Below the pieces are notes generated by a model, which saw only the letters and a program-made list of their open reading frames with translations, was not told the origin of the DNA and searched no databases. A program made the position numbers and the translations under genes. From a virus (taxonomy: Duplodnaviria; Caudoviricetes): a DNA stretch of 50,544 bases. Positions 6,044 to 48,447 of the stretch are shown here, piece by piece (position 1 is the stretch's first letter; every line of letters starts with the position of its first letter). Location of the stretch: positions 1 to 50,544 of IMG/VR virus record IMGVR_UViG_3300031786_000007; one strand, written 5' to 3'.

Positions 6044-6044
6044 T

Positions 6045-6416
6045 ATGAAAACTTTTGAACAATTTTTAAATGAGCAGATCTATACAGCTAAAGAGATTTG
6101 CGATTATATGACAGAAATTTCTGATACACCGGAAACAGATATTCCTGATTATTATATGGATGTTATAAAGAACGCTAACGCTAAATTTGAATTAAAAACT
6201 TTAAAAATTGACGATCTTCTTGCTCAAGATGAATCTTTGAAAGAATATGTAATGAGTGGAGAAGATAGATACGAAGATTCAGATTATGAGCCGTCTTGGG
6301 AAGAATTGCAAAATCCTATAGTAGTATACAAAGGTGAAGTGATAGACGGATATAATAGGACAGCTGTTCTTTATAGATCAGGAGAAAAAGAAATACAAGC
6401 TTACGTATCAATATGA
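6045..6416 (+). CDS. ParB/Srx-like domain protein with capsid-targeting-like N-terminus
   Basis: start moved to ATG 6045 (MKTFEQFLNE); PIVVYKGEVIDGYNR...GEKEIQAYV. Confidence 0.65.
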   Translation: MKTFEQFLNEQIYTAKEICDYMTEISDTPETDIPDYYMDVIKNANAKFELKTLKIDDLLAQDESLKEYVMSGEDRYEDSDYEPSWEELQNPIVVYKGEVIDGYNRTAVLYRSGEKEIQAYVSI

Positions 6417-7111
6417 TAAAGAACTATAAAAACTGGCTCTTTGAAAAAGCCACATCTGATCTTAATAGAAAACAAACTATATGGTGTAATATATGGCTAG
6501 GAGATCGATGGAAAGCTGTGGATAGTAATAGAGATACTCTAATAGAAGTTAGAGGAGATGTGACTATTAAAAATTCACAAACATTTTCTCTTCCTGTGAA
6601 ATTTGCCGATCATCGTTCAAATTTTACTATCGAAAGATGTCAAAATCTTGGAACACTTAAAGGTTGTCCAGAATCTTCAGAAGAATTTAGGCTCAAAGAT
6701 TGCCCTAATATTCAAACTTTAGAAGGAGGACCAAAAGAAGTTAGAGAATATCATGTACAAAATCTAGGCATTAAAAATCTTATAGGATCACCTGAGATAG
6801 TTACTAAAGTTTTTAATTGTGGAAATAATAATTTATTAGAATCATTTGAAGGTGCACCTTCAAAAATAGAAGGAGAAAGTATATTTTTTGCTCAACATTG
6901 TCCAAATGTGAAGACTATTTTAGGGGCTCCCATAGCTAAAGCTTATTTTATAACTACTGAGTGGATAGAAAATGCTACTGAAAAAGAGTGGTTATCAGAC
7001 CCGGATCAAAATTTAGATCTAATTCATAAATGGCTTAATTCTAAGTTAACTATAGAAGAATTTCTCATTGAAAAAAGAGGAATCATAACTGGAAAGAAAT
7101 ACGGACTATAA
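6413..7111 (+). CDS. LRR-like repeat protein with C-terminal KKYGL
   Basis: repeats LKGCPE, LEGGPK, LIGSPE, FEGAPS, ILGAPI about 22 aa apart. Confidence 0.65.
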   Translation: MIKNYKNWLFEKATSDLNRKQTIWCNIWLGDRWKAVDSNRDTLIEVRGDVTIKNSQTFSLPVKFADHRSNFTIERCQNLGTLKGCPESSEEFRLKDCPNIQTLEGGPKEVREYHVQNLGIKNLIGSPEIVTKVFNCGNNNLLESFEGAPSKIEGESIFFAQHCPNVKTILGAPIAKAYFITTEWIENATEKEWLSDPDQNLDLIHKWLNSKLTIEEFLIEKRGIITGKKYGL

Positions 7112-7115
7112 TTTT

Positions 7116-7124
7116 GATATATAG
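7116..7124 (+). promoter_or_regulatory. putative late promoter GATATATAG
   Basis: recurrent motif; upstream of terminase genes. Confidence 0.75.
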
Positions 7125-7199
7125 AAAAATAATGCTTGATTAAGCGTTGTGTCATGTGATAGAGACAAAATAGCTAAATCATAGAAAAAACCACAGGTT

Positions 7200-7856
7200 A
7201 TGAATAAGAAAGAAATGGAGAACCTAAAAAAACAAGCTAAAGATCTTGAAGACATCTTATTAGGTGTTAATAATGAAGGTATTCAAGCTGTAGCTGGTGA
7301 AGATGTTCTACCAAAATTAAAATCTATCGCTCCTTTAAATTATGATGAGGTTAAAACTGAAACTGACAGGAAAGCTACTGATATAGTAGAATCTGTCATT
7401 CTTATGTATTTACCAGCAGAATTTGTAAAAGAACAAGATTATGTTTATCAAAAAATGGAAGTTGATAAATTGACTGTTTCCAATTTGTTATTTCAAATGA
7501 GAACTGCAGAGCATGCTATCAAAAAACTTCTTGAAGAGATTGACAGCGGAAGTCCTCAGGCTAGACACTTTGAAGTTTTAGCGTCTCTTCAAAAATCAAA
7601 AATGGAAATAGTTAAACATTTAGCAGCTTTCATGGTTACTATGGAAAGTAATTACAAGAACTTAACTTTCGATTGGAAAAATGTTATAGACAAAACACAA
7701 GACATTCTTCCTGAAAGCACAGATGTCCCAGATGAGCATTCCACTAAATTCAGAGGAACAAAAGGATTAATGTCATTAGTTCAAGGTTACATGGATGAAG
7801 CTAAAAATAAGAAATTAGATGACCCTTTCGAAGACCTCACAAACAAAGACGAATAA
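7200..7856 (+). CDS. probable terminase small subunit
   Basis: helical protein directly upstream of and overlapping TerL; ARHFEVLASL and KFRGTKGL segments resemble T4 gp16-type proteins. Confidence 0.6.
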   Translation: MNKKEMENLKKQAKDLEDILLGVNNEGIQAVAGEDVLPKLKSIAPLNYDEVKTETDRKATDIVESVILMYLPAEFVKEQDYVYQKMEVDKLTVSNLLFQMRTAEHAIKKLLEEIDSGSPQARHFEVLASLQKSKMEIVKHLAAFMVTMESNYKNLTFDWKNVIDKTQDILPESTDVPDEHSTKFRGTKGLMSLVQGYMDEAKNKKLDDPFEDLTNKDE

Positions 7857-9621
7857 TTCTCATAACAGGGTATGGAATTCAGAAAGAGTTTCTGAATGTA
7901 TTAGAATAATAGAAGAAACTGGAGATGCTCCAATGGGAGGAACTCCTTTCCATGAAGGTGATCCTAGTTGGAAAGCAGCCGATATTGTTTACGAGTACTC
8001 TGAATTTGAATTACAAGAAATTGCTAGATGTGCAGCAGATGTAGTGTATTTTGCTAATAATTACTGTATGGCAATGACTGATTACGGTATACAGAAAATT
8101 ACTCTTCGTCCTTATCAAGAAGATGTTCTTAGGTCTTTCCAAGATAATCGTTTTAATGTCTTTTTAGCATCTAGACAGATAGGAAAAACTGTTACTTCTG
8201 CAATTTTTATTACATGGTATCTATTATTCAATGTAGATAAAAATGTAATAGTTCTAGCAAACAAAGGTGCTACTGCAGCAGAAATCTTAGATAAGATAAA
8301 ATCTGTATTCAAAGGATTGCCATTTTTCTTAAAACCTGGAATCGTAACAAATAATGTTATGACTATGAAATTCGATAACGGTTGCAGAGTAATGGGGCAG
8401 GCTACTACTAAAACAGCAGCTATCGGTTTTACCATCCATCTTGCTTACATGGATGAGTTTGCTCATATTCAACCCAGTTTCATAGAGCCTTTCTATCGTT
8501 CAGTTTATCCTACTATTGCAGCTTCTCTGATATCAAAAGTTATAATTACTAGCACTCCTAACGGAAGAAATAAATTCTTTGAGATCTATAATGGTGCGGT
8601 AGAAAAGAAAAATGAATACACTCCTATAAGAGTAGACTGGTGGCAAGTTCCAGGAAGAGATGAGAAGTGGAAAGCCAGAGAAATTGCAAACTTAGGCTCA
8701 GAAGAGCTTTTTAACCAGGAATATGGTAATCAATTCTTAGCAGGAGATACTCTTCTTTTAGGCGGAGATGCTTTGAGAGCTATGAAGAAGATTGTTAGAA
8801 ACTATAAATGGGATCAGATACAGGATTTTGAATATTCTGATTTAGATTACAAAAGCTTAAAATGGGACCCTAACTTTAGTTTTTATGATATTGATACCGA
8901 TGATAAGTTTGTACTTTCGATAGATATAGCAGATGGAGCTGGTAAAGATTACAGTGTCATAAACATTTTCAAGGTTGAAAAAATGAGTAAAGCTGCTATA
9001 AGAAAGCTTAGAAGAGATAGAATAGAGAGCGAAGCTAGTTTTTTCAGACTTAGACAAGTAGGAATGTACAGATCTAACAAATCTAGTGCAGAAGAGCTTT
9101 CTAAAATCTCAGAAGTTTTGATATTTAAGTTTTTCAATCCAGACAATGTAAGAGTATCTCTAGAGATCAATTTCAAAGGAGATTATTTTATTGAAAAGAT
9201 TTCAAAAAATGCAGAGTATTACGAAGACATCTTTTTACATACTAGACATAATGAAAAAACTAAGACCTATTCATTAGGCATAAAGCTGCATAAACATAAT
9301 AAAATGTTCTTTTGTAGAGAGTTTAGAAAACTTGTAATGGAAAAAAGAATTATCCTAAACGAGCAAGTAACTTTTGAAGAAATGAACGATTTTGGTATAA
9401 ATAACAAAGGAACTTATTCTTCTCAATCTGGTCATGATGATGTAGCAATGTCATGTGTGAATTTGGTTCCAATGTTCCAATCTGATACATTTTCAGATAT
9501 AGTAGAAGAAATGTACGATTTACTTGAAGAAGATACTAAAGATCTTATTCAAAAGAGACTGGCTGAAGCTGAAATCGATAAAGATGATAATACTTTTTCA
9601 TTTTTAAAAAATATTCTATGA
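7819..9621 (+). CDS. terminase large subunit (T4 gp17-like)
   Basis: LRPYQ, ASRQIGKT, YMDEFAH, ITSTPNG, FNQEY, nuclease SIDIADG.GKDYS and HDDVAMS. Confidence 0.96.
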   Translation: MTLSKTSQTKTNNSHNRVWNSERVSECIRIIEETGDAPMGGTPFHEGDPSWKAADIVYEYSEFELQEIARCAADVVYFANNYCMAMTDYGIQKITLRPYQEDVLRSFQDNRFNVFLASRQIGKTVTSAIFITWYLLFNVDKNVIVLANKGATAAEILDKIKSVFKGLPFFLKPGIVTNNVMTMKFDNGCRVMGQATTKTAAIGFTIHLAYMDEFAHIQPSFIEPFYRSVYPTIAASLISKVIITSTPNGRNKFFEIYNGAVEKKNEYTPIRVDWWQVPGRDEKWKAREIANLGSEELFNQEYGNQFLAGDTLLLGGDALRAMKKIVRNYKWDQIQDFEYSDLDYKSLKWDPNFSFYDIDTDDKFVLSIDIADGAGKDYSVINIFKVEKMSKAAIRKLRRDRIESEASFFRLRQVGMYRSNKSSAEELSKISEVLIFKFFNPDNVRVSLEINFKGDYFIEKISKNAEYYEDIFLHTRHNEKTKTYSLGIKLHKHNKMFFCREFRKLVMEKRIILNEQVTFEEMNDFGINNKGTYSSQSGHDDVAMSCVNLVPMFQSDTFSDIVEEMYDLLEEDTKDLIQKRLAEAEIDKDDNTFSFLKNIL

Positions 9622-9641
9622 GAAATTATGAAAATGTTTAA

Positions 9642-9650
9642 GATATATAG
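9642..9650 (+). promoter_or_regulatory. putative late promoter GATATATAG
   Basis: recurrent motif; upstream of sheath gene. Confidence 0.75.
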
Positions 9651-9685
9651 TAAAAGAAAAGAAGAAATAAAAAACACGTTCTAGC

Positions 9686-12600
9686 ATGGCAAAAATAAGA
9701 TTAGATCTGAGCCAATTTAAAGCATCAGGTATATATACTGTAGAATTTGATGCTTCAGAAAGCATTGTTATCAATACTCAGACAACAAGATTAGTAGTAG
9801 GTTTCTCTAAGAAGGGGCCTATTAACGCACCGGTTTTCTGTAATGATGTTAAGACTGCAAGAAGAATTTTCGGAGACATAGATAAAGATCTTGAAAACAA
9901 AGGTTCTTTTTTCCATAGAAGTTTATTCACTTGTTTGGAAACAGGACCATGTTTCGCATTGAACTTAATGCCTTTGAATAACGACGTTACAACAGCTAAT
10001 GCAGATTATGTCAAGTATAAAAGTTTCTCATTAAGTTCTACTGAAGCTAATGGTACTGAAGAATCAGTTTTATTCAGTTCTTTCTTTAACAAAGAAAGAT
10101 TCTACTTTCCTGATACTTCATATTTTCTTGCTAACGTAAACTCTTCAACTTCACCTAACCAAGGGAAGTTATTTAATTTTGTAAACTTGGGGCAAACACC
10201 TTACAGTGTAATAATTAGAAAGACGGGAAGTTTACCTGGTTTTGATGTAACAGCAAGAGATTGGTTTGGACCTGGAAATGTTCCAGAATTTATAAAAGAA
10301 TTCGATTTCATATCTGATTACTTTGTTAGTATTGATATAGTAGGAGGAAACTGGACAGATTTTTCTACATTAAGCGCAGATCCTAGCTTTTCACAGTATT
10401 TTGATACTAGAGGAATTATCAAATCTAAATTGAATGATTTCTTGAACAACGCGCAAATTACAAGACTTGGATCTTTTCAAGGATCTATCATTCCCGATTT
10501 AGTAGATAACAATGGAGTAAACTATAGTATAGATACTATCATAAACTCAGCTATAGCTACTACAGGTCTTTTCTGTGCTCTTAATAGAGATGCATTAAAT
10601 GATTATGATGCTACTAGTACTGCAATATCGGGTAGAGTAGATATGATAGGTCACTCATTAATTAATTCAACTAATAGTTCTATTAATTTCCTTTCTTATA
10701 ACTTTACTTCTAAAGAATATGAAGATTTTACTGGAGTATCAACTCATACTCTAACTAATAATACTTATCAATACGATTTAGGTACTGCTGCTACAACAAA
10801 TTTACCAGCAGGAGCTGGTTATTTGCCTGCTACTAATGGTTACTATAGAAACGTACCATCTAAGGCTGCTTATCTTACAAGTTACTATGGTACAGGTAAT
10901 GAAGGTAAATTCAATAATATCTTAGTATTAAGAAAAGAATTTTTCAGCGCAACACAATACGCCGAATTATCTTCTCTTAAATCTGGATCATCTTTAGCAT
11001 TTGAAGGTGTTTCAGGTACAAAATTAGCTACGATAACTTCTGTCAATGAAGTTACAGTAGGATCTGATATTAGATTAAAGTTAGCAATTTCACATCCTGA
11101 TAAACAGACTGAAGGGACTACTGCCGGAAAAAATGCTCAGGTAATTTCAAAAACTAGTTCGACTATAGTAGTTAGTGGTGCAGGAGCTCTTGGAGATCTT
11201 AATCCTGGAAACTGGATTCTTGCAGAAAATACTGGTTTAAGATATTACTTTAGAGTAGTATCAGTTGCAGCATCAGGATCTGATACGGAGATTACAGTAG
11301 ATACAACAAATGCTGAATTCGAAGGAGCTACTAATATTGGATACATTAACACATTCTTTAAAGTTTACTGGGAGGCTACTTCAGGTAATGAAGGATCTTT
11401 ATTTGATGTAATAGATACCAATAGTACTATTACAACATTCAAAGTTGTTAAACAACCTGACGTATTTAAACATGTAGTAGTATCAGGACAACAAAGCTAT
11501 TATACAGGATATGAATTCTCTCCAGCTTATGTAGACTTCAATACCGGTATTTTATCTGATTCTGATATAGCTTATATAGCAGGACCTACTCCTCTTTATT
11601 TATCAGCATCTTTTGGATTTGACACTGATGCAGTTAAAACTGTTACTATCAAAGCTTACATCGATCCTTCTTTAACTATTGGATACACTGGAAGCTGGAC
11701 ATTTGCTGATATTAAAGATTCTTCAGGATCTTCTACAGGTTCTGATTTAAGAATTTACTCTTTAGTTGGAGATTATGCATCTACTGTTACTGCAACAGGT
11801 TTTAACACTACAAGAACTACTTGTTATGTATCAGCTATAGATGAAAGTAAAATACAAGTTGGACAATATTTAGTAGCTGATCCATTAAATTCAGGAAATA
11901 TATCTGATTATATTTTAACTAGAGTTATAAGTAAGAAGAAAATTTCTTCAGGTACTTATAGTGGATACTATGAAATAAATGTTAACCAGAGGCTAGCTAA
12001 TTATGGATCTGATATCATTAGATATAAATCTGTTGACCAAGCTACACCTGGATATCAACCTACTTACTTACCAGGATTTAAAATTACTAGCTATCATTTA
12101 CCTAACGGTTCAAATTCTCAACTAGCAAAAATCTTAGGTATGTTAGATGAAGCTAATTCAAACTTACCTGAAGCTTTATCAAGTAGACATATTATAGCTT
12201 TTAGATACATTATAGATACTTTCAACGGTGGATTGAATACGCAATCTTATCCAAAAAATATTGTAACTAAACTTGCTAAGAAAAGACAGAAATGTTTAGC
12301 TATCATGAATGCTCCATCAATTTCGCAATTTGTGGCAAGCACTGATCCTAGATTTACTGAATTACCATCTCAAACTGATCCAAAACCGTTACTTAAGACT
12401 CAATACATTGCAGACGGAGGTAACTTAACACTTGGACCTTCATTCACGTATTCTTTACCTGATGAAGATAACGGAGCAAAATTCTCAGGTTTCTTTGCAC
12501 CATTCTTAGTGATCAGAGAAAACAACAAGAATTTCAGTATTCCACCGGCTGCAGATGTTTCAAATAATTTTATCCGTAAATTTATCAACGGACAACCTTA

Positions 12601-27918: not shown

Positions 27919-27973
27919 ATGCAAAAACTAGAACTTATCAGTTTTGGTGCTATTAGCTTATAAACACATAAAA

Positions 27974-29191
27974 ATGAGTAAAACTTTAGGGTTAAGCATG
28001 ATAGTTAAGAATGAATCTCATGTCATTCTTAGATTACTAAATTCAGTAGTCCCAATAATTGATTATTGGGTTATTGCAGACACTGGCTCAACAGATGGTA
28101 CGCAAGAAATAATACAGAAGTTTTTTGAAGAGAAGGGTATACCTGGTAAACTTTTACAAATAGACTGGATAGATGATTTTTCTTATGCTAGAAATCAATC
28201 ATTGAATGAAATAGAAAAACATGTAGATTATGGAATGTGGATAGATGCCGATGAAGAGCTTATCATTAACAGCTCTTTCAATAAAGAAGAAATGTTGAAG
28301 CAAGAGTTTCATTCAATATCCATTGAAACTATTTACGGAAAAGTAAATTACACTAGAAAAAATATCTGGAAAACAGGTATGAATTTCTACTGGGAAGGTC
28401 CTATTCATGAGTTGTTATCGTCAAAAGAAGAGACTATCGGTGGTCTAGCAAAAGGTTTAAGCGTAGTAGTTAGAGCTGAAGGTAGTTCTTGGGGAAATAT
28501 CATAGAGAAATACCTAGGTCATGCTAAAATATTACAAGCACATGCTGAAAAAACTAATGATCCTAGATGGGTATTTTACACAGCACAATCTTACAGAGAT
28601 GCACAAGAATACCCGACATCTATAGAATGGTACAAGAAAAGAGCTGAAATGACAGAAGGTTTTTATGAAGAAACTTTCATATCTAAATTAATGGTTGCAA
28701 AATTATCTGAAATTATCGGTAAAAGTAAGAATGAGTGTACTATTTTATACCAAGAAGCAAATTCGTCCGACCCTGCAAGAGGAGAAGCTATTAAGAATTT
28801 AATTCAGATGTACCATAGACTCAATGACTGGGAAAATGCGTACGTATTCTCTTTGTACGGATTAAAATACAACAAAAATAATCCTTATCCTCATAGAGTT
28901 CTTTTCTTAGATACTGCATTGTATGACTTTGAAATGTTAGAATTACATTCTCTTTCATGTTTTTATACTAATAGGATAGAAGAAGGCTCTAGATGCTATT
29001 GGATGATGAGACAACAACTTCTTGAACTAGGTCCAGATTATTTACCACAAGAAGCTATGCAAAGAGTATTAAACAATGAGCAATACTTTCCGATAACTCA
29101 TGCTACTGGTATTGTAAGCCCTCAGAAAAAAACTTTAAAGCCTTCTTTTCCTGCACACGGAGGATCGAAGAAAAATAGAAAAAAGAGGTAG
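27974..29191 (+). CDS. GT2 glycosyltransferase with TPR-like repeats
   Basis: start moved to ATG 27974; LSMIVKNE, DTGSTDGT, DFSYARN, IDADE, GPIHE; helical FYTAQSYRD repeats. Confidence 0.9.
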   Translation: MSKTLGLSMIVKNESHVILRLLNSVVPIIDYWVIADTGSTDGTQEIIQKFFEEKGIPGKLLQIDWIDDFSYARNQSLNEIEKHVDYGMWIDADEELIINSSFNKEEMLKQEFHSISIETIYGKVNYTRKNIWKTGMNFYWEGPIHELLSSKEETIGGLAKGLSVVVRAEGSSWGNIIEKYLGHAKILQAHAEKTNDPRWVFYTAQSYRDAQEYPTSIEWYKKRAEMTEGFYEETFISKLMVAKLSEIIGKSKNECTILYQEANSSDPARGEAIKNLIQMYHRLNDWENAYVFSLYGLKYNKNNPYPHRVLFLDTALYDFEMLELHSLSCFYTNRIEEGSRCYWMMRQQLLELGPDYLPQEAMQRVLNNEQYFPITHATGIVSPQKKTLKPSFPAHGGSKKNRKKR

Positions 29192-30638: not shown

Positions 30639-31030
30639 TAAAAGTATTCGAAACCAATTTACTCAAGCCTATTGACAAAGAGTTAGTCAAAATAGCAGAT
30701 GAGTTTGGATATAAGGGTATTTCAGTTTGCGTGCTAGATCCTAAAATTAAACAGAGTATTTATTGGTCTACAACAAATGTAAAATTTTTGGTCGGAGAAC
30801 CTGATGAAAGAACTAAAAACAAAGGAAGAGATTCTGACGGTTGGCCAGGAGTGTGGAGAATTACAGAAAAACTTGGCGGAGGTGCAGGTTGTGGAAATCA
30901 TCAACAACGACAGTTAACTCATGACCATAAGTTTTCAGAAGTTTCTTATTTGAAAATAAAAGGCGTGTGGTACATATCAAATGGAATAGAAAATATAACA
31001 AAAAGTATTAACGAAAAATTTAATTTATGA
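30635..31030 (+). CDS. hypothetical protein with C-terminal KFNL
   Basis: 131-aa ORF coupled to neighbours by ATGA overlaps. Confidence 0.65.
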   Translation: MIKVFETNLLKPIDKELVKIADEFGYKGISVCVLDPKIKQSIYWSTTNVKFLVGEPDERTKNKGRDSDGWPGVWRITEKLGGGAGCGNHQQRQLTHDHKFSEVSYLKIKGVWYISNGIENITKSINEKFNL

Positions 31031-31935
31031 GTCTAAATTTAGGATATGCTTGTATCAATATGAACCTCTCAGAGAAAGGAATTTCTACTAATAGAGGTAT
31101 GATTAAGAAAACTTTCTTAACTAAAGGAAAAGATTATGCAGCAGATCTAGCTCTTAAAAATCTAGAAGATCTTAAAACTATTATAAAATGGAACTCTGAA
31201 AATGGTATATTCATATACAGAATGAGTTCATGTTTGTTCCCTTGGATGTCAGAATATGATTTTAAAGATCTTTATAACTATGATGCAATTTTGAAATCTT
31301 GTAAAGAAATTGGAAAATTAGCTAGCGATCATGGACAACGATTAAGTTTTCATCCCGGACATTTTGATATTCTAGCTACTAGCAACCCAGATGTTTTAAG
31401 AAGGACTGTTTTGGATCTTAATCAACATGCTCAGATCATGGATATGATGGAGCTCAGAGAAGATGGCTATAATACTATAAATATACACGTAGGTGGTGCT
31501 TATGGTGATAAAGCTTCTGCTTTGAAAAGATTCTGTGAAAATTTTGGTTTATTACAACTTAGTGCTAGAAAAAGGCTCACCGTTGAAAACGATGACAAAG
31601 CTAGTATGTATTCTGTTAATGACTTGTACAACGGTGTCTACAAAGAAATTAAAATACCAATTATTTTTGATTTCCATCATCATAGAATGTGTGACGGTGG
31701 TTTAACGGAGAGAGCTGCTCTCCAGCTTGCAGCCTCTACATGGCCCTCTGGAATTCGCCCCCTTACACATTATTCGAGTTCTAAGAAGCTTAATGAAGAT
31801 TCTAGCGTAAATCATCAAGCTCATGCAGAGTACTTATATGAACAAATAAATACTTACGGATTAGATATCGATATAGAACTAGAAGCTAAAGCAAAAGAAC
31901 TGGCATTAGTAAAATACAGAAAAGATTATGAATAA
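31027..31935 (+). CDS. uvsE: UV DNA damage endonuclease (UVDE)
   Basis: LGYACIN, YRMSS.LFP, RLSFHPGHF, INIHVGG, VENDDK, FDFHHH, ELEAKAKE. Confidence 0.95.
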   Translation: MSLNLGYACINMNLSEKGISTNRGMIKKTFLTKGKDYAADLALKNLEDLKTIIKWNSENGIFIYRMSSCLFPWMSEYDFKDLYNYDAILKSCKEIGKLASDHGQRLSFHPGHFDILATSNPDVLRRTVLDLNQHAQIMDMMELREDGYNTINIHVGGAYGDKASALKRFCENFGLLQLSARKRLTVENDDKASMYSVNDLYNGVYKEIKIPIIFDFHHHRMCDGGLTERAALQLAASTWPSGIRPLTHYSSSKKLNEDSSVNHQAHAEYLYEQINTYGLDIDIELEAKAKELALVKYRKDYE

Positions 31936-32122
31936 AAAAGAAGAAATTGTAAAGATTGTTGAAGAATTAAAAGATGACAAGATTACAGTAGATGAAGCTG
32001 AGCAATTGTTATTAGATTTATTTAAAGCCTCTAAAACAAGATGGAGAGGATATTGCAGTTCAGAAACATTAACAGGAAAAAGATGTAAAGAGTTATGTGA
32101 TAAATCTCAATGCGGATGGTAA
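31928..32122 (+). CDS. small hypothetical protein
   Basis: 64-aa ORF with C-terminal Cys cluster. Confidence 0.55.
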   Translation: MNKKEEIVKIVEELKDDKITVDEAEQLLLDLFKASKTRWRGYCSSETLTGKRCKELCDKSQCGW

Positions 32123-32152
32123 CAAAATAGAGATTATTTGTTATTTTTATAC

Positions 32153-32713
32153 ATGAATATTTTTGTTTTAGATACTGACGTAAAAAAATGTGCAGCTTAT
32201 CATTGCGATCGTCATTTAATTAAAATGATCACTGAGCATAACCAAATACTTGGATCTATAGCACACACATCCAGAGGAATTAGTAAAAAGTCTGAAATTA
32301 CTCCTGAATACATTATTGAAAATTTTAAAGGATTTCCACGTGTCAATGAAAATAGAGATATTTCTCCATACGGAATAGGATATAAAACTCATCCTTGTAC
32401 TCAATGGGCTAAAGCTAGTTCACAGAATTATGAATGGGTATGTTCTTTAACAGAAGAGATGTGTAAAGAATACACTCGTAGGTATAAAAAGATTCATGCC
32501 GGAGAAGCTGTAATTAACTGGTACAGATATCATCAACCTCAATTACCTAGTCATGGCATGACACCGTTTGCTCAAGCTATGCCAGAATACCTTAAATCAG
32601 AAAATGCTGTACATTCGTATAGGTTATATTACGTAAAGCATAAGTCTAATTTTGCTACCTGGAAAAACGGAGAACCTGAATGGTGGAACAAATACATGTT
32701 ATTGGAAGTATAA
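32153..32713 (+). CDS. pyrimidine-dimer DNA glycosylase / endonuclease V-like family protein
   Basis: start moved to ATG 32153; MNIFVLD, HCDRHLIKM, HPCTQWA, EYTRRYKKIH, FAQAMP, YRLYY. Confidence 0.8.
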   Translation: MNIFVLDTDVKKCAAYHCDRHLIKMITEHNQILGSIAHTSRGISKKSEITPEYIIENFKGFPRVNENRDISPYGIGYKTHPCTQWAKASSQNYEWVCSLTEEMCKEYTRRYKKIHAGEAVINWYRYHQPQLPSHGMTPFAQAMPEYLKSENAVHSYRLYYVKHKSNFATWKNGEPEWWNKYMLLEV

Positions 32714-37004: not shown

Positions 37005-38711
37005 ATGGATCTATCAACTCTTAGAAATAACATTACACAAAAACGTATAGACAATAAAAATATAATCTCTGAATTTAACGAACTTAAGAGAAATAAAAAA
37101 CTTTTAGAAGAAGTTTCATTACTATTTCCATTTATAGATGTTTCAGACGTTGGTAAACTTTTGTATCATTTAAGAGACAATTTAAGTGTTCAAAAATGTA
37201 ACTGTGGAAAAGAAAAAAAGTTTATTTCTTTTAGTAAAGGATATTTTAAAACATGTGGAAACAAAAAATGTGTAGACGATACTCGGTTAAATTCAATTAA
37301 AGAAACAACCAAAGAAAAATATGGTGTAGAGCATACATCACAATTAGAGACTACTAAGAAAAAGCATAAACAAACTATGACTGGCAAATATGGTTGCAGT
37401 CATAATTTTACAGGTAAACTAAGAGATGCTATATATGAAAAAAATGAAAAGGAATGGGGAGTAAAACATGCTTTACAACGAAAAGAATCTAAATTGAAAA
37501 AAGAAGAGACTATGTTAAATAGATACGGTTCTTTAGATATGTTCTCTAATGAAAAAACGATAAAAACTAACATAGAAAAATATGGGAATAAAAATCCCAT
37601 GAAATCTGAAGAAATTGCTAATAAAGTATCAGAGTCTTTAAAAAGAACATTTACACATAGACAAATAGAAAAATTGCACAAATTTGATATACTATTATTA
37701 GAGTATAATAATCTAAATCAATATTATAATGTGTTATGTAATAAATGTAATATTGAATCTGTAGTTGCTGGCGCTACAATGAATTCTAAGTTAAGATCTG
37801 ATGTATCTCCTTGTCCAATATGCAACCCTTATATACCTTCTTATGTTTCAAATTTAGAAATAGAATTTAAAGAATGGTTACAAAGCTTGGGTGAAATATT
37901 GCAATCATCTGTTAAAACTATAGTTCCTAAAAATGAATTAGATATTTATTTACCAAACAGAAAAATCGGATTTGAGTTTAATGGAATTTATTGGCATTCT
38001 GAGCTATACAAAGATTGCAATTATCATTATAAAAAATCTATGAAATTTTTGGAAAAAGGTGTAAAGATTTTTCATATATGGGAAGATGATTGGGTAGAAA
38101 AAAAAGAGATCGTCAAGAAACGCATACTTTCATTATTAAATAAGTCTGAAAAAACTGACGCTAGGAAATGTGAAATATTAAGTATAGATTTTAAAACAGC
38201 TTCAAAGTTTATAAATGACAATCATTTAGATGGGAACTTTAAAGCTAAAATATATCTAGGAGCTTATGAAAATGAGAAGCTAATAGGAGTGATGTCTTTT
38301 TCTCATTCAAGATTTAGTAAAAATAAAGATGAATGGGAAATTATAAGATTTTGCACTTCAAAAAATGTAAGAGGTTTAGCTTCTAAATTTATATCTAGAT
38401 TTAAAAAAATTATAGATCCTAATAAAATTATATCTTTTTCAAAAATAGATTGGAATTCTTCTTATGAAAATTCAGTATATTACAAAATAGGGTTTTCATT
38501 AGATAGTATATCCCCTCCTTCTTCTTATTGGAATATAAACGGAAAACGAATACATAGGCTCAATTTTATTAAAAGCAAAATATCCAATGAAGAAAATAAA
38601 CACATGAGTGCTGTGGAAATAATGCATAGTAAAAATTATTACAGAGTATGGGATTGTGGAAATTGGAAATTTAGTTGGAATAAAAGTTTATGTGACGCAA
38701 AAGATATATAG
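37005..38711 (+). mobile_element. free-standing homing endonuclease-like gene (Hef/Vsr-like PD-(D/E)XK domain, KYG repeats, C-terminal GNAT/Mom-like domain)
   Basis: EKYGV/GKYG/RYG repeats; CNKC..CPIC; ELDIYLP..GFEFNGIYWHS, HIWEDDW; ARKC..NHL.G..IGVMSF..WEIIRFC..YYKIGF; visibly more AT-rich than neighbours; inserted right after MCP terminator. Confidence 0.75.
38703..38711 (+). promoter_or_regulatory. putative late promoter GATATATAG
   Basis: overlaps upstream stop codon; 18 nt before ATG 38730. Confidence 0.72.
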
Positions 38712-42522: not shown

Positions 42523-42729
42523 ATGGAATTTGAAATTATAGCAATCACATTATTGTACGTATATGGGATACTCGGATCTTTATCTTTTATGAAAAATATT
42601 TGGAAGAACGGTATAGCTAAAAATTATACGTTACATTTAACAATATGTTTCATTCCAGTGTTGAATACTCTTATAGCTCTCACTAATAATTACATAGATT
42701 ACATAACTGCAAAAATGAAAAGAAAATGA
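42523..42729 (+). CDS. small two-TM membrane protein
   Basis: start moved to ATG 42523; two hydrophobic segments, FIPVLN. Confidence 0.6.
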   Translation: MEFEIIAITLLYVYGILGSLSFMKNIWKNGIAKNYTLHLTICFIPVLNTLIALTNNYIDYITAKMKRK

Positions 42730-44081
42730 AAAATAATGTAGGAATACTTATATTTGGAGATCCAACCAGAGGAGGTACAATTGCATCAGAAGTTAAATTC
42801 TTGAAAAGTTTATACGAATCAAATAATCATGATTCCGATTTTTATATCGTCACTGTTAACGATTCAGTTACAAAGAAAATAATCAAAGAAAAGGAAACTA
42901 CTTATGATTTTCCGCATGAAATTGTTCAAATTTTTGGAGAAAGTGATCTTTATAAATTAGATCATTTTTCATGTTTAGTAACTTATCCTGGACATTCAAA
43001 CTTTTTTGGAGGTTACTTAAATGATAATATTGTTAAAATGTACAAAATTATCTCTAAGTTCACAAATGATTTAAAAAGACCTGTGTTTGTCAGAATTAAT
43101 GATTCTGAAATTAAAGTTAGAGATTACAGAAGATTATCGAAACAGAGATTAGACGCTGGTTATTTAGCAAGAGAAGAAGGTAAACCTGATTCAGCATTTA
43201 TGAGAGATCCTATCAATGTAGGTAAAGCTGAAGATATAGTATCTTGGAAAGAATGGGATTACTCATTAGTTTATTGGTTTGCTAACGGATCTAAAGAAGC
43301 TTGTGATTGGGTTTCTGAAACTATGTACGATAGAGAAGATGAATACTTTAGAATGACAACTCCTGAACAATTCAGAGAGAATACAATTTATGTTTCCGAT
43401 GATATTTTCTTTTTAGTTAAGAAAAATTACCAGCGTTTTAACAAACGATACTCTGAACAAGTAGGGTTGGAAAATAAATTTTGCTATATTGGATTTTTTG
43501 ATACAGTCAATGTAGCAAGAGCAAAAGCTTTTAATAATTTATTCAAAGAAAATGTTCATAAAGTTCCGTTAAAAATATTTGGAAAGGGAACTGAAATTCT
43601 TACAAAATTCAAAGATAAGACAAATGTAGATATCGAAGAAGGTTTTATTAAAGGAGACTCTGAAGAATACTTTGATTTTTTAAATAAACATTTAGCTTAC
43701 GTGTTCATAGGCAAAGGTCAAAGTGAATCAAGATATATTGGTAAAACTGTATATGATGCAATCGTAGCAAGAACTCCTATAGTTGTTTACAAGAAATGTG
43801 ATTCTAAAATGATTACATTCAAAAACCCTGAATTCTATTTTGAAAATGAAGAAGAGCTTAAAGCTATTTTTGATAAACTTCAGGATAGTGAAACAAGAGA
43901 TCGATGGATTAGTGAACAATATAATGATATTATGAGTAAACTTCCACCTTCTACTTTTAAGTTTACTAATTACTGTAATATTTTGGGTTCTCTTCCAGAA
44001 GAATTACATTTTAAAGGATATCCTCAAAAAGAAGTTAAACCTAAGAAAGCTCAAACTATTAAAACTGTAGAACTTTTTTAA
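42726..44081 (+). CDS. DNA glycosyltransferase, T4 beta-glucosyltransferase (BGT)-like GT-B
   Basis: TIASEVKFL, SNFFGG, VRINDSE, CYIGFF, AYVFIG, FYFENEEEL align with recalled T4 BGT PSSETIYL, INFFGG, LFTDIR, IYGGSF, ALIIG, FYVNNRAEL. Confidence 0.75.
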   Translation: MKNNVGILIFGDPTRGGTIASEVKFLKSLYESNNHDSDFYIVTVNDSVTKKIIKEKETTYDFPHEIVQIFGESDLYKLDHFSCLVTYPGHSNFFGGYLNDNIVKMYKIISKFTNDLKRPVFVRINDSEIKVRDYRRLSKQRLDAGYLAREEGKPDSAFMRDPINVGKAEDIVSWKEWDYSLVYWFANGSKEACDWVSETMYDREDEYFRMTTPEQFRENTIYVSDDIFFLVKKNYQRFNKRYSEQVGLENKFCYIGFFDTVNVARAKAFNNLFKENVHKVPLKIFGKGTEILTKFKDKTNVDIEEGFIKGDSEEYFDFLNKHLAYVFIGKGQSESRYIGKTVYDAIVARTPIVVYKKCDSKMITFKNPEFYFENEEELKAIFDKLQDSETRDRWISEQYNDIMSKLPPSTFKFTNYCNILGSLPEELHFKGYPQKEVKPKKAQTIKTVELF

Positions 44082-44082
44082 T

Positions 44083-44268
44083 ATGAACTACACAAAGGAA
44101 GAAATAGAATCTAGATTAAAAGAACTATTATATGATCTTTTAAGATCTGGTAATCAAGAAGGGTCTATCCTTTCATTGAACTATAATGAAAAGAAACAAG
44201 AATGCAATGTCACTTTAACAGTTAATATAATTGAAGAAGACGATTACATAGGATTTGATGGATACTAA
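44083..44268 (+). CDS. hypothetical protein
   Basis: 61-aa ORF in tightly packed operon. Confidence 0.55.
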   Translation: MNYTKEEIESRLKELLYDLLRSGNQEGSILSLNYNEKKQECNVTLTVNIIEEDDYIGFDGY

Positions 44269-44482
44269 AATAAGAAAAAAAATGGGAATAGTCAAAACAT
44301 TCAGAGAAGTAGAATATAATGGTAAGATATTTGAAGCTAAAGACAATATGGTTGTAGAAACAAGGACTGGAAAAAATTCTGTTAGTTTAACAGCTCCAAT
44401 AGATTTCGTAGATGGAATGTTAAAAGATTACGTCAATGAAAATGTTAAAGTTACTATATCCGTTCAAATAGAAAAAATATGA
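44255..44482 (+). CDS. hypothetical protein
   Basis: 75-aa ORF overlapping neighbours (ATG 44258 likely start). Confidence 0.55.
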   Translation: MMDTKIRKKMGIVKTFREVEYNGKIFEAKDNMVVETRTGKNSVSLTAPIDFVDGMLKDYVNENVKVTISVQIEKI

Positions 44483-44889
44483 TAAAAAGATTAGCAGAAA
44501 TCAATGCATCTGGTGACAGTATTACTACTGAAGAATTCTTAGAAAGAAAGGCTATTGTAGATTCTTTACATAAAGAAGGAATTATCGAACTGGGTGTAGG
44601 AGGAAATTTCTTATTCACTAGTGCAAAAAGCCAAGAAGAGTACGTAGAAGCTTTTGATAAGAAAAAAATGGATATTTCTAGAGAAGCTACGATGAAGATG
44701 GAAGGGATTTATTTTCTAGTAAAATGGCCTGAATCTCAACTTTTGATGGATGAGGATTGGTTTGATAAAGAATGCCATTTAGCTGAAATGGAAAAAGATC
44801 CTGAAATTGGAAACTCAGCTTATTTCATCCCAGTTAAGAGGATGATTATTCTAGAAGAAAAATTAAATGCTATAGCTAATGAAGGTTAA
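44479..44889 (+). CDS. hypothetical protein
   Basis: 136-aa ORF, YFLVKWPESQ.LM..WF motif; function unknown. Confidence 0.65.
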   Translation: MIKRLAEINASGDSITTEEFLERKAIVDSLHKEGIIELGVGGNFLFTSAKSQEEYVEAFDKKKMDISREATMKMEGIYFLVKWPESQLLMDEDWFDKECHLAEMEKDPEIGNSAYFIPVKRMIILEEKLNAIANEG

Positions 44890-46069
44890 TGTTATACAAT
44901 TTGACCCTGTGATAGGCGGGGAAACTACTCTTACTAATGCTTTAGTAGCTATCTTGAAAAAAGCACATGATGTTAGGATTATTCATCCTGTTCATGCTGG
45001 AAAATCGGGAAAACTGAAAATTAACAAAGCTTGGGGTAAAGTTGAAGGTGAAGAATTTCTCACTTATTCTCAAACCGCAGAAGCTTGTGAAGATGTAGAT
45101 TTTATTTTCTGTGTTAACGCTAAACACGTTAAAGGATCTGTGAAATCTGACAAAAGAGAACAGGCTCAAGCAGATTCAGATGCGTTCTTTGGCCAATTTC
45201 ACGATAAAGATTTTATCTTCTATGAGCATGGATTTCATACATGGAGGCTTTATAATTACGAGAATCTATTTGAAAAGTTGATGAAAAATGATAACACTAT
45301 CAGAGTTCTGACTAACACTAATATGGCTATCGAGTTTTACAAAACCAAGAATTATAATGCATATTTGTGTCGTCAACCTTTCAACACTGATCTTTATAAG
45401 CCACTTAAAGAGAAAAAAACTTTTACGGATTTTGATCCATACAATATGGCTCACCAATACGTCGGGGAAGCTCCTGTTAAAATCTGTTTTAATTCTAGGT
45501 ATAGTTCTACAAAAGGACCTCATGTGATCATAAAAGATTTTATGCAATTCTTTAATAAAGATTTGAATTTCAAATTGCAATTCAGAGGTAACATTAGTGA
45601 TCCAGTTTCAGTGTGGCATAATATCGATGGAGTTCTTTTGAAAGATGTAGTTAGATCTAAAAAAGAGATAGTTTTCTTGGATTTTGCCGATGATATATCT
45701 GACATCTATCAAGATCAAGATTACTGTGTCTATGCAGGGTATTTAACAAGAGAAGAAAGAGGAAAAATAGAGTATGCTGTTCTAGAACCTATCTTTTACG
45801 GTATCCCTTTGATTGTTCATCCTGATGTTTTTGCTTATTTTAAATACGAAGAGTATGGTGTATCAGAAGAACAATTGAGAAAATGTTTCATAGAATTAAC
45901 TCCTGAAAACATACAGAAAATTATAAATAGGGAATTTGATCCTTCTGAATATATTAGAAATGCTAAAATAATTCTAGAAGATTTCTTGCCTGAAAAAATC
46001 TTGGAAAGATTTGACGCATGTTCATCTTCTCCTGCTTCTAAAGGTCGTAAAAAAGTTGAATTATTTTAG
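44879..46069 (+). CDS. DNA glycosyltransferase, T4 alpha-glucosyltransferase (AGT)-like GT-B
   Basis: IGGETT, FIFYEHG, RQPFN, SRYSSTKG, KIEYAVLE..YG align with recalled T4 AGT GCGVTK, VVYQHD, FQPPM, GRTTTWKG, SLEYTHLE..CG. Confidence 0.7.
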   Translation: MKVNVIQFDPVIGGETTLTNALVAILKKAHDVRIIHPVHAGKSGKLKINKAWGKVEGEEFLTYSQTAEACEDVDFIFCVNAKHVKGSVKSDKREQAQADSDAFFGQFHDKDFIFYEHGFHTWRLYNYENLFEKLMKNDNTIRVLTNTNMAIEFYKTKNYNAYLCRQPFNTDLYKPLKEKKTFTDFDPYNMAHQYVGEAPVKICFNSRYSSTKGPHVIIKDFMQFFNKDLNFKLQFRGNISDPVSVWHNIDGVLLKDVVRSKKEIVFLDFADDISDIYQDQDYCVYAGYLTREERGKIEYAVLEPIFYGIPLIVHPDVFAYFKYEEYGVSEEQLRKCFIELTPENIQKIINREFDPSEYIRNAKIILEDFLPEKILERFDACSSSPASKGRKKVELF

Positions 46070-46071
46070 AC

Positions 46072-46269
46072 ATGGTTGAATTATTTGGATATTTTTCAAT
46101 GATCTTAGTTTTAGTTTCCATGCTAATGAAAGATATGTGGATGCTAAGATTACTTAATAGCATAGCTTGCGGATGTTTTGTAGTTTATGGGTATATGATA
46201 GGATCTTTTCCTATTATAGTAATGAATATTTTAGTCATTTTTATAAATGTGTATAAAATGAGGAAATAG
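46072..46269 (+). CDS. small 3-TM membrane protein (YgjV-like)
   Basis: GY.SMILVLVSMLMK..LRLLN..C..FVVYG..I...PII..N...IFINVY. Confidence 0.7.
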   Translation: MVELFGYFSMILVLVSMLMKDMWMLRLLNSIACGCFVVYGYMIGSFPIIVMNILVIFINVYKMRK

Positions 46270-46274
46270 ATACT

Positions 46275-46283
46275 GATATATAG
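46275..46283 (+). promoter_or_regulatory. putative late promoter GATATATAG
   Basis: recurrent motif 16 nt upstream of ATG 46300. Confidence 0.75.
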
Positions 46284-46299
46284 AAAAAATTCTATACAC

Positions 46300-46815
46300 A
46301 TGAAGTATTTTAAAACTTTTGAGTCTTTTACAGACGAGTCTTATAAATTTGTCTTAAATGACAAGAATTTTGATAATCAAATTCGACGTATAGAACTACC
46401 TATTGAAGGTAAAATTGCTCTAAGTATAGAAGTTCATAAAGATCGTGAAGAAGAAGCTAAAAAAGCATTTCTTGATAATGATACTACAAAGCCTGATATG
46501 TATCGTCTGAGATGCCAAAATTATCCCCCTGAAACAGGGATATATGGTAAATCAACATGGTTTGAGTTAGATGAAAACAGCAATTTCTATAATGATGCTA
46601 ATTCTTATCCAGGAGGATTTAATTTTCCTAATCCAAAAAAATATGATGAATTAGATATTTTCTATAGACTTCAAGAGTTCATGGAGAACCTACCGAGTCA
46701 ATATAGAGCAAATTGTAAAGAAGTATTATCTTGGCCTATCTTTTCAAGATGGTTTGAACACTGTAAAGAGAAATACAGAGTAAAAATTATTGGTAGAAAA
46801 TACGGTTTATCTTAA
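46300..46815 (+). CDS. probable capsid-packaged protein with C-terminal RKYGL
   Basis: MKYFKTFESFTDES start, GRKYGLS end; own promoter and terminator. Confidence 0.75.
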   Translation: MKYFKTFESFTDESYKFVLNDKNFDNQIRRIELPIEGKIALSIEVHKDREEEAKKAFLDNDTTKPDMYRLRCQNYPPETGIYGKSTWFELDENSNFYNDANSYPGGFNFPNPKKYDELDIFYRLQEFMENLPSQYRANCKEVLSWPIFSRWFEHCKEKYRVKIIGRKYGLS

Positions 46816-46822
46816 TTGATTT

Positions 46823-46850
46823 AAAAAGGAACTCTATGGTTCCTTTTTTT
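46823..46850 (+). terminator. intrinsic terminator
   Basis: AAAAAGGAAC-TCTATG-GTTCCTTTTTTT. Confidence 0.85.
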
Positions 46851-46854
46851 ATGA

Positions 46855-46880
46855 GAACTATTTATAATCCCTTCATAAAA
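46855..46880 (+). promoter_or_regulatory. putative ECF-type promoter GAACT-N16-TAAAA
   Basis: recurrent motif upstream of kinase/hydroxymethylase pair. Confidence 0.5.
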
Positions 46881-46885
46881 TAATT

Positions 46886-47470
46886 ATGAAGTTACTAATT
46901 ATAGAAGGGCCCGATCGCTGCGGGAAAAATACATTAATCAAAAGTTTGACATCTCAAGCTGAAAATTATGTAGTTCGCCATTTTGGAACAGCTAAAGGCG
47001 AAACTAATTTTGAAAAAAGAGATCATCAATTTCAATTTTTCAAAAAAGAATTTGAGCTAGCATCTCAAAGACGACAGTTTGAAATGCCCGATAAAATGAG
47101 ATATCCTAGAGATATTTGGATCTGGAACAGGGCTCATTTAGGTGAATTTGTATACGGGAAAATGTATAGAGAAACACATCCTGAAGAATGGGTGATGCAG
47201 ATGGAAAGTTTATTCGGCATGGATATAGATCCATCTGTATATCTTTTACTTCTTACAGCCGACCCAGGGTTTCTTTGTAAAAATGATGATGGGCAATCAT
47301 TCTCAGCAGATATTGAAAAGAAAAAAACTGAGCTTTATCAATTCGATGTAGCTTTTGATAAAAGTAAAATTTTGAATAAAATGAGATTAAATGTCAGTAA
47401 CGGAGATGAATCTTATTTAGATCAAGATATAATCTTAGATACAGTTAATAAATTCTTAAATTTTAAATAA
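46886..47470 (+). CDS. thymidylate-kinase-like dNMP kinase
   Basis: LIIEGPDRCGKNT P-loop; IWNRAHLGEFVYG (DR-motif position). Confidence 0.85.
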   Translation: MKLLIIEGPDRCGKNTLIKSLTSQAENYVVRHFGTAKGETNFEKRDHQFQFFKKEFELASQRRQFEMPDKMRYPRDIWIWNRAHLGEFVYGKMYRETHPEEWVMQMESLFGMDIDPSVYLLLLTADPGFLCKNDDGQSFSADIEKKKTELYQFDVAFDKSKILNKMRLNVSNGDESYLDQDIILDTVNKFLNFK

Positions 47471-48447
47471 TGAGTTACATCGAAAATGATTCGTTTGAAA
47501 CAGCATCAGATATTGGGTATAACCATATCAATTTACAAGTATTCCAACTTTTGGAAGATTTGGAAGCTGCAGGACAAACTTCTTCTCCTAGAGGATTAAA
47601 AACTAAGGAAGCTAACTTAGCTACTTTAGATATTGATCCATTGTACCCTGTCATAGATTTTAAATCTAGAAGATTCAATTGGAAATATTTTGCAGGTGAA
47701 CTTGCATGGTACTTAAAAGCAGATCCTTCTATCGATTTCATTAACAATTTTTCTTCTTTCTGGAAAGGGATAACTCCATCAGGAAAAGCTAATTCTAATT
47801 ATGGAAATTTGCTTTTTAGACCTCATCCTTCTTCAACTTCTAATATATCAAATCCACAAGGTGTTAATCAATTAGAATGGATTTACGATTCTCTAGTTAA
47901 AGATAAACACACTAGACAGGCTGTAGGTTTCTTTAATGCTCCATATTTTCAATATGAAGGAAATAAAGATTTTGTGTGTACAATGTATATTAATTTCTGG
48001 ATAAGAAAAGATCATCTTGAAATGAAAGTGCAAATGAGATCTAATGATATTTTCTTTGGTTTAACTTATGATGCACCTTGGTTTTCTTCAATTCACCAAA
48101 GTATGTACCTGAACCTAAAACAAGTTTATCCAGATTTGAAATTAGGAGTTTATTACCACTCAGCTGATAACATTCATTTTTACGAAAGACACTTTGAAGT
48201 AGCTGATAAAATTTTAGATGAAGGTATAGATACTACAATTAAATTGAGAATGATACATCCGTTATTTAGATTTATAGAAACGGTTACTCCCGGTAAGCAT
48301 AGTTTAGTCATTAATGAAAAAGCTGTAACTTATTTGAAAATTATAGATGATATAATTGATTCAGAAGATGATAATAAAGATAAAAATTTCTGGAAAAGTA
48401 CCCTTGGATATCTCTATGAGATCACAGGAGACAATCTGGATAAATAA
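47470..48447 (+). CDS. thymidylate-synthase-family enzyme with dCMP-type specificity residue (T4 gp42 dCMP hydroxymethylase-like)
   Basis: ELAWY, NSNYG, TRQA, KDFVCT, QMRSNDIFFGLTYDAPW (Asp in place of ThyA Asn177), HFYERHF. Confidence 0.85.
   Translation: MSYIENDSFETASDIGYNHINLQVFQLLEDLEAAGQTSSPRGLKTKEANLATLDIDPLYPVIDFKSRRFNWKYFAGELAWYLKADPSIDFINNFSSFWKGITPSGKANSNYGNLLFRPHPSSTSNISNPQGVNQLEWIYDSLVKDKHTRQAVGFFNAPYFQYEGNKDFVCTMYINFWIRKDHLEMKVQMRSNDIFFGLTYDAPWFSSIHQSMYLNLKQVYPDLKLGVYYHSADNIHFYERHFEVADKILDEGIDTTIKLRMIHPLFRFIETVTPGKHSLVINEKAVTYLKIIDDIIDSEDDNKDKNFWKSTLGYLYEITGDNLDK

Follow-up and report, generated by a model that had tools for sequence, protein, structure and literature searches.

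The closest described counterpart of the locus analysed here is the glucosyl-5-hydroxymethylcytosine (glucosyl-hmC) system of phage T4, which comprises gp42, gp1, gp56 and two glycosyltransferases (GTs), alpha-gt (AGT; PF11440) and beta-gt (BGT; PF09198). A 2026 survey, which used PSI-BLAST over GenBank viruses, reports in the sections drawn on here that, of 753 GT-bearing phage genomes, only 6 carry an alpha together with a beta GT and all of these are Tequatrovirus, that having both enables T4 to evade Brig1 combined with restriction, and that the pairing is nearly unique to T4 and possibly recent (PMC13216743). Here we describe a gene cluster of the Caudoviricetes record IMGVR_UViG_3300031786_000007 that combines a predicted dCMP hydroxymethylase and a kinase with two GT-B transferases, one resembling BGT and the other, probably, AGT. 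The window is the entire 50,544-base virus record. The cluster is real and conserved, and we regard it as a distant lineage's variant of the T4 glucosyl-hmC system, one whose transferases belong to new families.

Other described systems share parts of this arrangement. The arabinosyl- and galactosyl-5-hydroxycytosine clusters of RB69, DLP3 and RL38JI, as set out in the portions of PMC13326640 cited here, likewise group a synthase, a thymidylate-kinase-like gene and several GT-B genes, but have D169N synthases and their own sugar-nucleotide genes, whereas the window enzyme has D169 and its cluster contains no sugar-nucleotide gene. The TET-associated GT53 and GT94 enzymes, in the relevant parts of a preprint by Pyle and colleagues (10.1101/2023.12.21.572611), are also divergent BGT-like GT-B proteins with extra loops and act on hmC; there hmC arises after replication through a methylase plus TET and the sugars are heptose and Kdo, whereas the window route is predicted to act before replication. 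The jumbo Bacillus phage G has a synthase related to that of the window (33% identity) and likewise encodes two GT-B DNA transferases, but both are of alpha type, according to section 19 of PMC13216743, where the window has one of each. The sections consulted of the Pyle preprint, which mined ~25,000 metagenomic GT contigs, note GT-B genes beside thymidylate synthases. Our literature search found no paper describing the window cluster; the preprint's supplementary contig tables, which possibly list the clade, lay outside it.

Like T4, the locus pairs a dCMP hydroxymethylase signature with one modelled BGT-fold and one probable AGT-fold enzyme, and a gp56-like dCTPase and a separate ThyA/ThyX are present, but in the window's relatives. 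Unlike the T4 enzymes, the window transferases are only 11–13% identical in structural alignment and fall below the Pfam models. They sit in one cluster with a thymidylate-kinase-type kinase, whereas T4 alpha-gt lies 11 kb from beta-gt and 42; both end in Leu-Phe (LF), a tail absent from T4 alpha-gt and beta-gt; and the host is likely one of the Bacteroidota. The window pair also persists over ~50% divergence, in contrast to the six known carriers, whose genomes are 84–88% identical according to section 19 of the survey (PMC13216743). The features of the cluster are as follows, GT1 and GT2 being our names for its first and second transferase (GT2 here does not denote GT family 2):

42726..44081, + strand: GT1, a beta-glucosyltransferase-like GT-B enzyme of 451 aa (VIA-align, Foldseek, profile), with E22, NFFGG 92-96, D126, R265 and D344 and a ~40-residue insertion after D126 (alignment)
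44061..44078, + strand: C-terminal KTVELF tail of GT1, a predicted sliding-clamp-binding motif (conservation)
44083..44889, + strand: three small open reading frames (ORFs) between the transferases, a variable slot with no family matches
44879..46069, + strand: GT2, a probable alpha-glucosyltransferase-like GT-B enzyme of 396 aa (VIA-align, ESM Atlas, residues), with GGE 13-15, YEH 115-117, R207, K212 and E298-Y-x3-E303
46049..46066, + strand: C-terminal KKVELF tail of GT2, a predicted sliding-clamp-binding motif (conservation)
46072..46815, + strand: a 65-aa small membrane protein and a 171-aa ORF, outside the conserved cluster (Imp-YgjV, E 2e-4)
46886..47470, + strand: P-loop nucleoside-monophosphate kinase, 194 aa (PHROG 761 thymidylate kinase, E 1.7e-8)
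47470..48447, + strand: predicted dCMP hydroxymethylase, 325 aa (D167, C170, D193 and D201 corresponding to ThyA L143D, C146, D169 and N177D)

A sequence-only reading of the window had pointed to the four main genes in this stretch, and we found them at the positions listed, on the + strand. It had also proposed translational coupling of the kinase to the hydroxymethylase, and the stop and start codons indeed share one base (TAATG at 47468-47472). Both transferases are present near the kinase, as that reading had it, but the genes are not contiguous: five small unrelated ORFs separate the transferases from the kinase or from each other, and these vary among relatives. The slot between GT1 and GT2 can hold a thioesterase or other small genes instead, and in the related loci L107 and L108 the 65- and 171-aa ORFs are missing and GT2 abuts the kinase. 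The kinase is predicted to phosphorylate 5-hydroxymethyl-dCMP (hmdCMP).

The best PDB matches of the hydroxymethylase were MilA (E 2e-14) and T4 gp42 (E 8e-11), both ahead of ThyA. Within its 325 residues, DFVCT occupies positions 167-171 and MRSNDIFFGLTYDAPW positions 189-204, and D201 aligns with the 'FRND' of gp42 and the 'AVSD' of MilA. At the positions of ThyA 143, 146, 169 and 177 it has D, C, D and D. By the rules given in the sections of PMC13326640 used here, N177D marks dCMP specificity (section 24), L143D/E a product other than methyl, and D169N a 5-hydroxy-dCMP product, N being found there in every tested 5-hydroxy-dCMP (5hodCMP) synthase (section 28). Because D stands at 143, 169 and 177, hmdCMP is the predicted product. 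This supports the dCMP specificity that the sequence-only reading had drawn from DFVCT and the aspartate equivalent to ThyA N177D, while its alternative, 5-hydroxycytosine, is disfavoured: the window enzyme reads MRSND rather than MRSxN, keeping D169 whereas 5hodCMP synthases have N. Of 81 further rows from viral loci, 79 share this signature and the remaining two are a gene fragment and a second paralogue; a pattern search recovered it in 97 of 99 close hydroxymethylase homologues.

Genes that could balance the nucleotide pools were found in relatives. A separate ThyA or ThyX was encoded by 3 of the 4 larger related records holding this hydroxymethylase family (a fifth, a fragment without the synthase, is excluded from the count). 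A protein 34% identical to the T4 dCTPase gp56 (E 4e-24) occurred in 6 of 9 relatives' records, adjoining a Pfam AGT gene in one of them (G007), and in 0 of 2 records of a clade with D169N synthases. In the synthase, these relatives are ~50% identical to the window.

As single sequences, GT1 and GT2 gave no Pfam or PHROG match at E 0.01, no meaningful PDB match, and nothing useful against 50,697 annotated phage records. We folded GT1 from an alignment of 101 homologues (pLDDT 92.5) and GT2 from 56 (pLDDT 88.2), and compared the models with 48,161 solved chains by VIA-align. The top match for GT1 was T4 BGT (1c3j; Z 22.7, rmsd 3.7, 319 aligned residues), followed by a chain at Z 17.9, with AGT at 16.0, and Foldseek also ranked BGT first. 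T4 beta-GT supplied the only PDB matches below E 0.1 to the 101-homologue profile (E ~1e-4), and a broadened profile reached BGT at E 7e-7. The BGT-like motifs named by the sequence-only reading, and the profile search that it suggested, are thus borne out by profile and structure. Conservation among the homologues is complete for D126 and G96 (101/101 each) and nearly so for E22 (99/101); E22 and the NFFGG motif occupy positions that we take to be functional in BGT. D126 is likely the catalytic base equivalent to T4 D100, in a register read from the alignment, since MAFFT placed it a few columns off at D100. GT1 did not match the Pfam BGT model PF09198 at E 1. In 5 records that profile found no match, nor did it in any control, so it was uninformative there, and a quick tree of 36 GT1 rows could not place T4 BGT because of its long branch. 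We are confident, on these sequence and model comparisons, that GT1 is beta-glucosyltransferase-like, yet it falls outside the current Pfam BGT model.

For GT2, the corresponding alpha-type assignment is the weaker of the two, although we still consider an AGT-like enzyme probable. Its top VIA-align match was T4 AGT (1y6f; Z 24.2, rmsd 3.8, 343 aligned residues), followed by PimA at 21.8, with BGT at 15.4, and the top three ESM Atlas matches were PF11440 AGT clusters at 0.98. The YEH, R207/K212 and EYxxxE motifs lie in register with T4 alpha-GT: H117, R207, K212, E298, Y299 and E303 align with AGT H114, R204, K209 and E306-Y-x3-E311, and each is conserved in 56/56 homologues. We presume that these AGT residues are the important ones. 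The models therefore suggest a reciprocal sorting of the two transferases, GT1 to BGT and GT2 to AGT. No match of GT2 to the Pfam AGT model PF11440 was found at E 1. One GT2 homologue (P0127, 84% identical) carries a ~190-residue insertion between the two domains that has no Pfam match; its motif is reminiscent of SLOG-type nucleotide-binding domains.

Both transferases end in VELF. Among aligned homologues, an LF C-terminus was found in 85 of 101 for GT1 and 55 of 56 for GT2, whereas in a background of 241 representatives, one per family of the fetched loci, it occurred 8 times; in the window itself, GT1 and GT2 alone of 47 ORFs of at least 100 aa have it. In 12 other transferase-like families encoded nearby, no sequence bore the tail. 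Among the families that do carry it are C5 methylase-like, adenine methylase and Pfam AGT proteins, and one that by its motif resembles RNase HII. T4 gp43 ends in SLDFLFG. According to the parts of PMC2988020 cited here, T4 polymerase, gp55 and gp33 bind the clamp through short hydrophobic C-termini, and section 21 of PMC13216743 reports that T4 AGT co-purifies with the clamp. By analogy, the LF tails are predicted to bind the sliding clamp, and because this conserved tail resembles the clamp motif, it points to action on DNA. Model confidence is low in the tail of both proteins, and a search of 5 related records for a sliding clamp found none.

The order of the cluster is conserved in metagenomic relatives. 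We recovered 21 loci for GT2, 8 of them close (69–90% identical). GT1 lies directly upstream of GT2 in 7 of these 8, the eighth beginning inside GT2, and kinase and hydroxymethylase follow GT2 in all 3 that extend far enough; each of the pairs L103/L104 and L107/L108 appears to represent one genome twice, leaving ~5 independent close cases. As an indirect sign of co-occurrence, the longest contig of 24 of 57 GT2 homologues was identical in size to that of a GT1 homologue, where 0.3 would be expected. The pairs co-diverge down to ~50% identity (Mantel r 0.78, 0/2000 permutations, 23 pairs; r 0.67 with all 24). The same size matching assigned both GT1 and GT2 to 11 of 99 hydroxymethylase homologues, GT1 only to 12 and GT2 only to 4. 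In one locus (L079), GT1, kinase and hydroxymethylase are present and GT2 is not; in three small phages with a different terminase type (L080-L082), genes for a short dCMP hydroxymethylase and a MazG-like protein come directly after a 58% identical GT1, a sign that phage lineages have exchanged genes. Because GT1 alone precedes the hydroxymethylase in these four loci, the beta-type enzyme can act without GT2. Rows with and without GT2 were intermixed in the quick GT1 tree (5 changes; 132 of 500 shuffles as low).

More distant homologues occupy other base-modification clusters. A clade of jumbo phages with D169N synthases has the synthase, a 438-aa gene, the kinase, two sugar epimerases and one transferase slot. 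That slot holds a GT1 homologue in L091 (cluster at 5474-10535) and L092 and a GT2 homologue in L100 (cluster at 5276-12035), L101, L109, L110, L113, L114, L117, L121 and L122, several of which are near-repeats; the D169N pattern missed L109 and L117, and L109 was read from the alignment. Each of two large records of this clade that we checked has a GT1 or a GT2 homologue, one or the other. The clade likely makes a non-glucose glycosyl-5-hydroxycytosine. GT1 and GT2 genes thus behave as alternative modules of base-modification clusters, like alpha-gt and beta-gt of the T-even phages, but their use extends to other bases and probably to other sugars. In L101 the cluster adds a GDP-mannose dehydratase. 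Distant GT1 homologues (30–39%) in L086 (87-4851), L089, L090 (4140-12249) and L093-L095 neighbour genes for inositol-1-phosphate synthase, amino-acid:DNA transferase, TET/JBP, hmdU kinase or C5-methylase-like proteins. The wider hydroxymethylase family relies on other transferases; 4 of 75 loci have a Pfam-AGT-like gene with sugar-nucleotide genes. Over ~1-10 kb of each, L001, L002, L007 and L037 share the same synthase and kinase, an AGT-family gene, a nucleotidyltransferase, a HAD phosphatase and a further GT-B gene, as well as two tandem C5-methylase-like genes ending in LF. An A1 search of 5 hydroxymethylase-bearing records gave no match, and PF11440 matched 1 of the 5.

We give a slight preference to a reading in which hmC is made before replication and glycosylated in parallel in two linkages, beta by GT1 and alpha by GT2; that the cluster is a separate, older instance of T4's strategy belongs to this reading and is held with the same modest preference. 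In this scheme, the hydroxymethylase would convert dCMP to hmdCMP, the overlapping kinase would phosphorylate it, and a dCTPase and separate ThyA/ThyX elsewhere in the genome, as seen in relatives, would adjust the pools, so that the modified base replaces cytosine in phage DNA. Carried on the sliding clamp by their LF tails, GT1 and GT2 would act in competition on the same hmC bases. A host sugar nucleotide is the likely donor because the cluster has no sugar-making gene of its own, and UDP-glucose, the single most probable donor, has about even odds. Two linkages could hedge against linkage-specific host glycosylases while hmC would stay hidden from type IV nucleases, as in T4. Palindrome counts in the window fail to separate modified from unmodified DNA, as the T4 control also shows avoidance.

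Several results weigh against this scheme. GT1 is only ~13% identical to BGT, its insertion follows the catalytic Asp, it has T/K and D at the positions of BGT R269 and E272, and its first ESM Atlas match was AGT (0.96), with later rows mixed. For GT2, AGT leads the next structure by only 2.4 Z, the BFVD matches are mixed viral GTs, and Foldseek places the GT4 enzymes PimA, GlgM and BshA first and AGT at rank 24. Profile-profile comparison scored the alpha-GTs and a GT4 control alike (E 0.0025 and 0.0022), and against T4 AGT or BGT alone the GT2 profile was not significant. The AGT-like call of the sequence-only reading is supported by VIA-align, the ESM Atlas and motifs in register, but not by the Foldseek ranking, and the profile search it proposed did not separate AGT from GT4. 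Neither GT1 nor GT2 was found within 10 kb in any of the 75 viral loci recovered with the hydroxymethylase, and distant homologues of both sit in clusters with 5-hydroxycytosine genes and epimerases or with TET, inositol and amino-acid-transferase genes. The dCTPase and separate ThyA/ThyX that the sequence-only reading would seek elsewhere in the genome turned up in the more distant relatives, but Pfam and PHROG scans found none, nor a clamp gene, in the 50.5-kb window. The Foldseek ranking, a weak Glyco_trans_1_4 match (E 0.012) and the many other glycan genes of this phage's relatives would fit GT2, or both transferases, being GT4-type enzymes for virion protein or host-surface glycans that are placed here by chance. 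We consider this very unlikely: the LF tail is common to DNA-acting enzymes and absent from other transferase families, the position of GT2 between GT1 and the kinase is fixed, and in another base-modification cluster a single slot is filled by homologues of either GT1 or GT2. GT4 enzymes, moreover, have seven residues between the two Glu where GT2, like AGT, has four. A different base is more improbable still. Databases label the synthase family thymidylate synthase and distant GT1/GT2 homologues adjoin D169N synthases, but a phage thymidylate synthase or 5hodCMP synthase is disfavoured by N177D, L143D and D169, which all indicate hmdCMP, and by the separate ThyA/ThyX of relatives.

Two further schemes keep hmC and change what the transferases do with it. 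GT1 could add the first sugar and GT2 extend it to a disaccharide, replacing the GT-A second-sugar enzyme of T2 and T6. GT1 without GT2 in close relatives (L079, and the 12 hydroxymethylases above) and GT1 at 7 of 7 informative close GT2 loci are consistent with such an order, and in RB69 and DLP3 further sugars are attached by GT-B enzymes, as reported in section 25 of PMC13326640. The 438-aa gene beside the synthase of the 5-hydroxycytosine clade, which has GT-B-like motifs read by eye and no database match, may likewise be a primary transferase, with the GT1 and GT2 homologues secondary. We nevertheless find sequential addition unlikely, as the best whole-chain match of GT2 is a base-flipping primary enzyme, T4 AGT, with YQH-type and EYxxxE motifs, the 4 hydroxymethylases noted above match GT2 only, and GT2 homologues in the 5-hydroxycytosine clade precede a GT-A gene that is itself a possible extender. 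A shade less likely again, in our view, is parallel transfer in which the two enzymes use different sugars and one or both are something other than glucose, such as rhamnose, fucose, GlcNAc or a uronic acid. Both transferases lie outside the Pfam AGT/BGT models, and sections 7 and 8 of 10.1101/2023.12.21.572611 describe loops in Kdo and heptose BGT-like enzymes similar to the GT1 insertion by the catalytic Asp. An RmlD-like reductase and a UDP-glucose/GDP-mannose dehydrogenase also lie a few genes downstream in L103, with RmlD in L079, but these belong with GT7, GT11 and GT6 transferases in a separate glycan cluster, and the core of L107/L108 has no sugar-nucleotide gene from GT1 to the hydroxymethylase. 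That glycan cluster (L103, 8442-13486; L079, 11329-15102), just beyond the point where the window ends, also includes NAD synthase and probably serves virion or host-surface glycans.

The window comes from a large uncultured phage; Pfam and PHROG scans of it also identified head, tail and terminase genes of T4-like type, together with a clamp loader and a sigma factor. The nearest relatives of the capsid protein are an uncultured 462-kb phage (46%) and Prevotella Lak phages (44%), and those of the terminase are the same 462-kb phage, phage PAU and Tenacibaculum phages PTm1/5. A Shine-Dalgarno-like word precedes 1 of 36 genes examined, against a 10% background, and Bacteroidetes are reported to lack Shine-Dalgarno sequences in the portions of PMC7797042 and PMC3155529 cited here. 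Given these capsid and terminase relatives and the near-absence of Shine-Dalgarno words, a Bacteroidota host is likely, as the sequence-only reading had supposed. Elsewhere in the window, adjacent UV-repair genes encode a UvdE endonuclease and a pyrimidine-dimer glycosylase (31027-32713). A homing-endonuclease-like gene that gives a weak Mom-family acetyltransferase match is inserted after the capsid gene (37005-38711) and is absent from that place in L104, and a GT2-family (GT-A) transferase without an LF tail lies distant from the cluster at 27944-29191. The word GATATATA occurs 11 times (1817, 3751, 7116, 9642, 23088, 27390, 29191, 32795, 33338, 38703 and 46275), mostly 20–45 bases upstream of gene starts, including those of structural genes, and is a probable late promoter element.

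Altogether, these data suggest that the alpha/beta pairing also occurs in a distant uncultured lineage, where it is old and stable and goes unseen by standard profiles. A bolder picture is possible, if doubtful: in uncultured jumbo phages of Bacteroidota, forming a large clade, two clamp-tethered transferases would place two different sugars or a new disaccharide on hmC, at least one sugar not being glucose, and the alpha and beta modules would be interchangeable and would also be swapped onto 5-hydroxycytosine. The LF tail may serve as a simple sequence mark that tells DNA-acting transferases from the other glycan genes of jumbo phages. If the pairing is as we read it, GT1 and GT2 would offer two new families of enzymes with which to label hmC, and hosts well outside the enterobacteria would possess linkage-specific defences against DNA coated with sugar.

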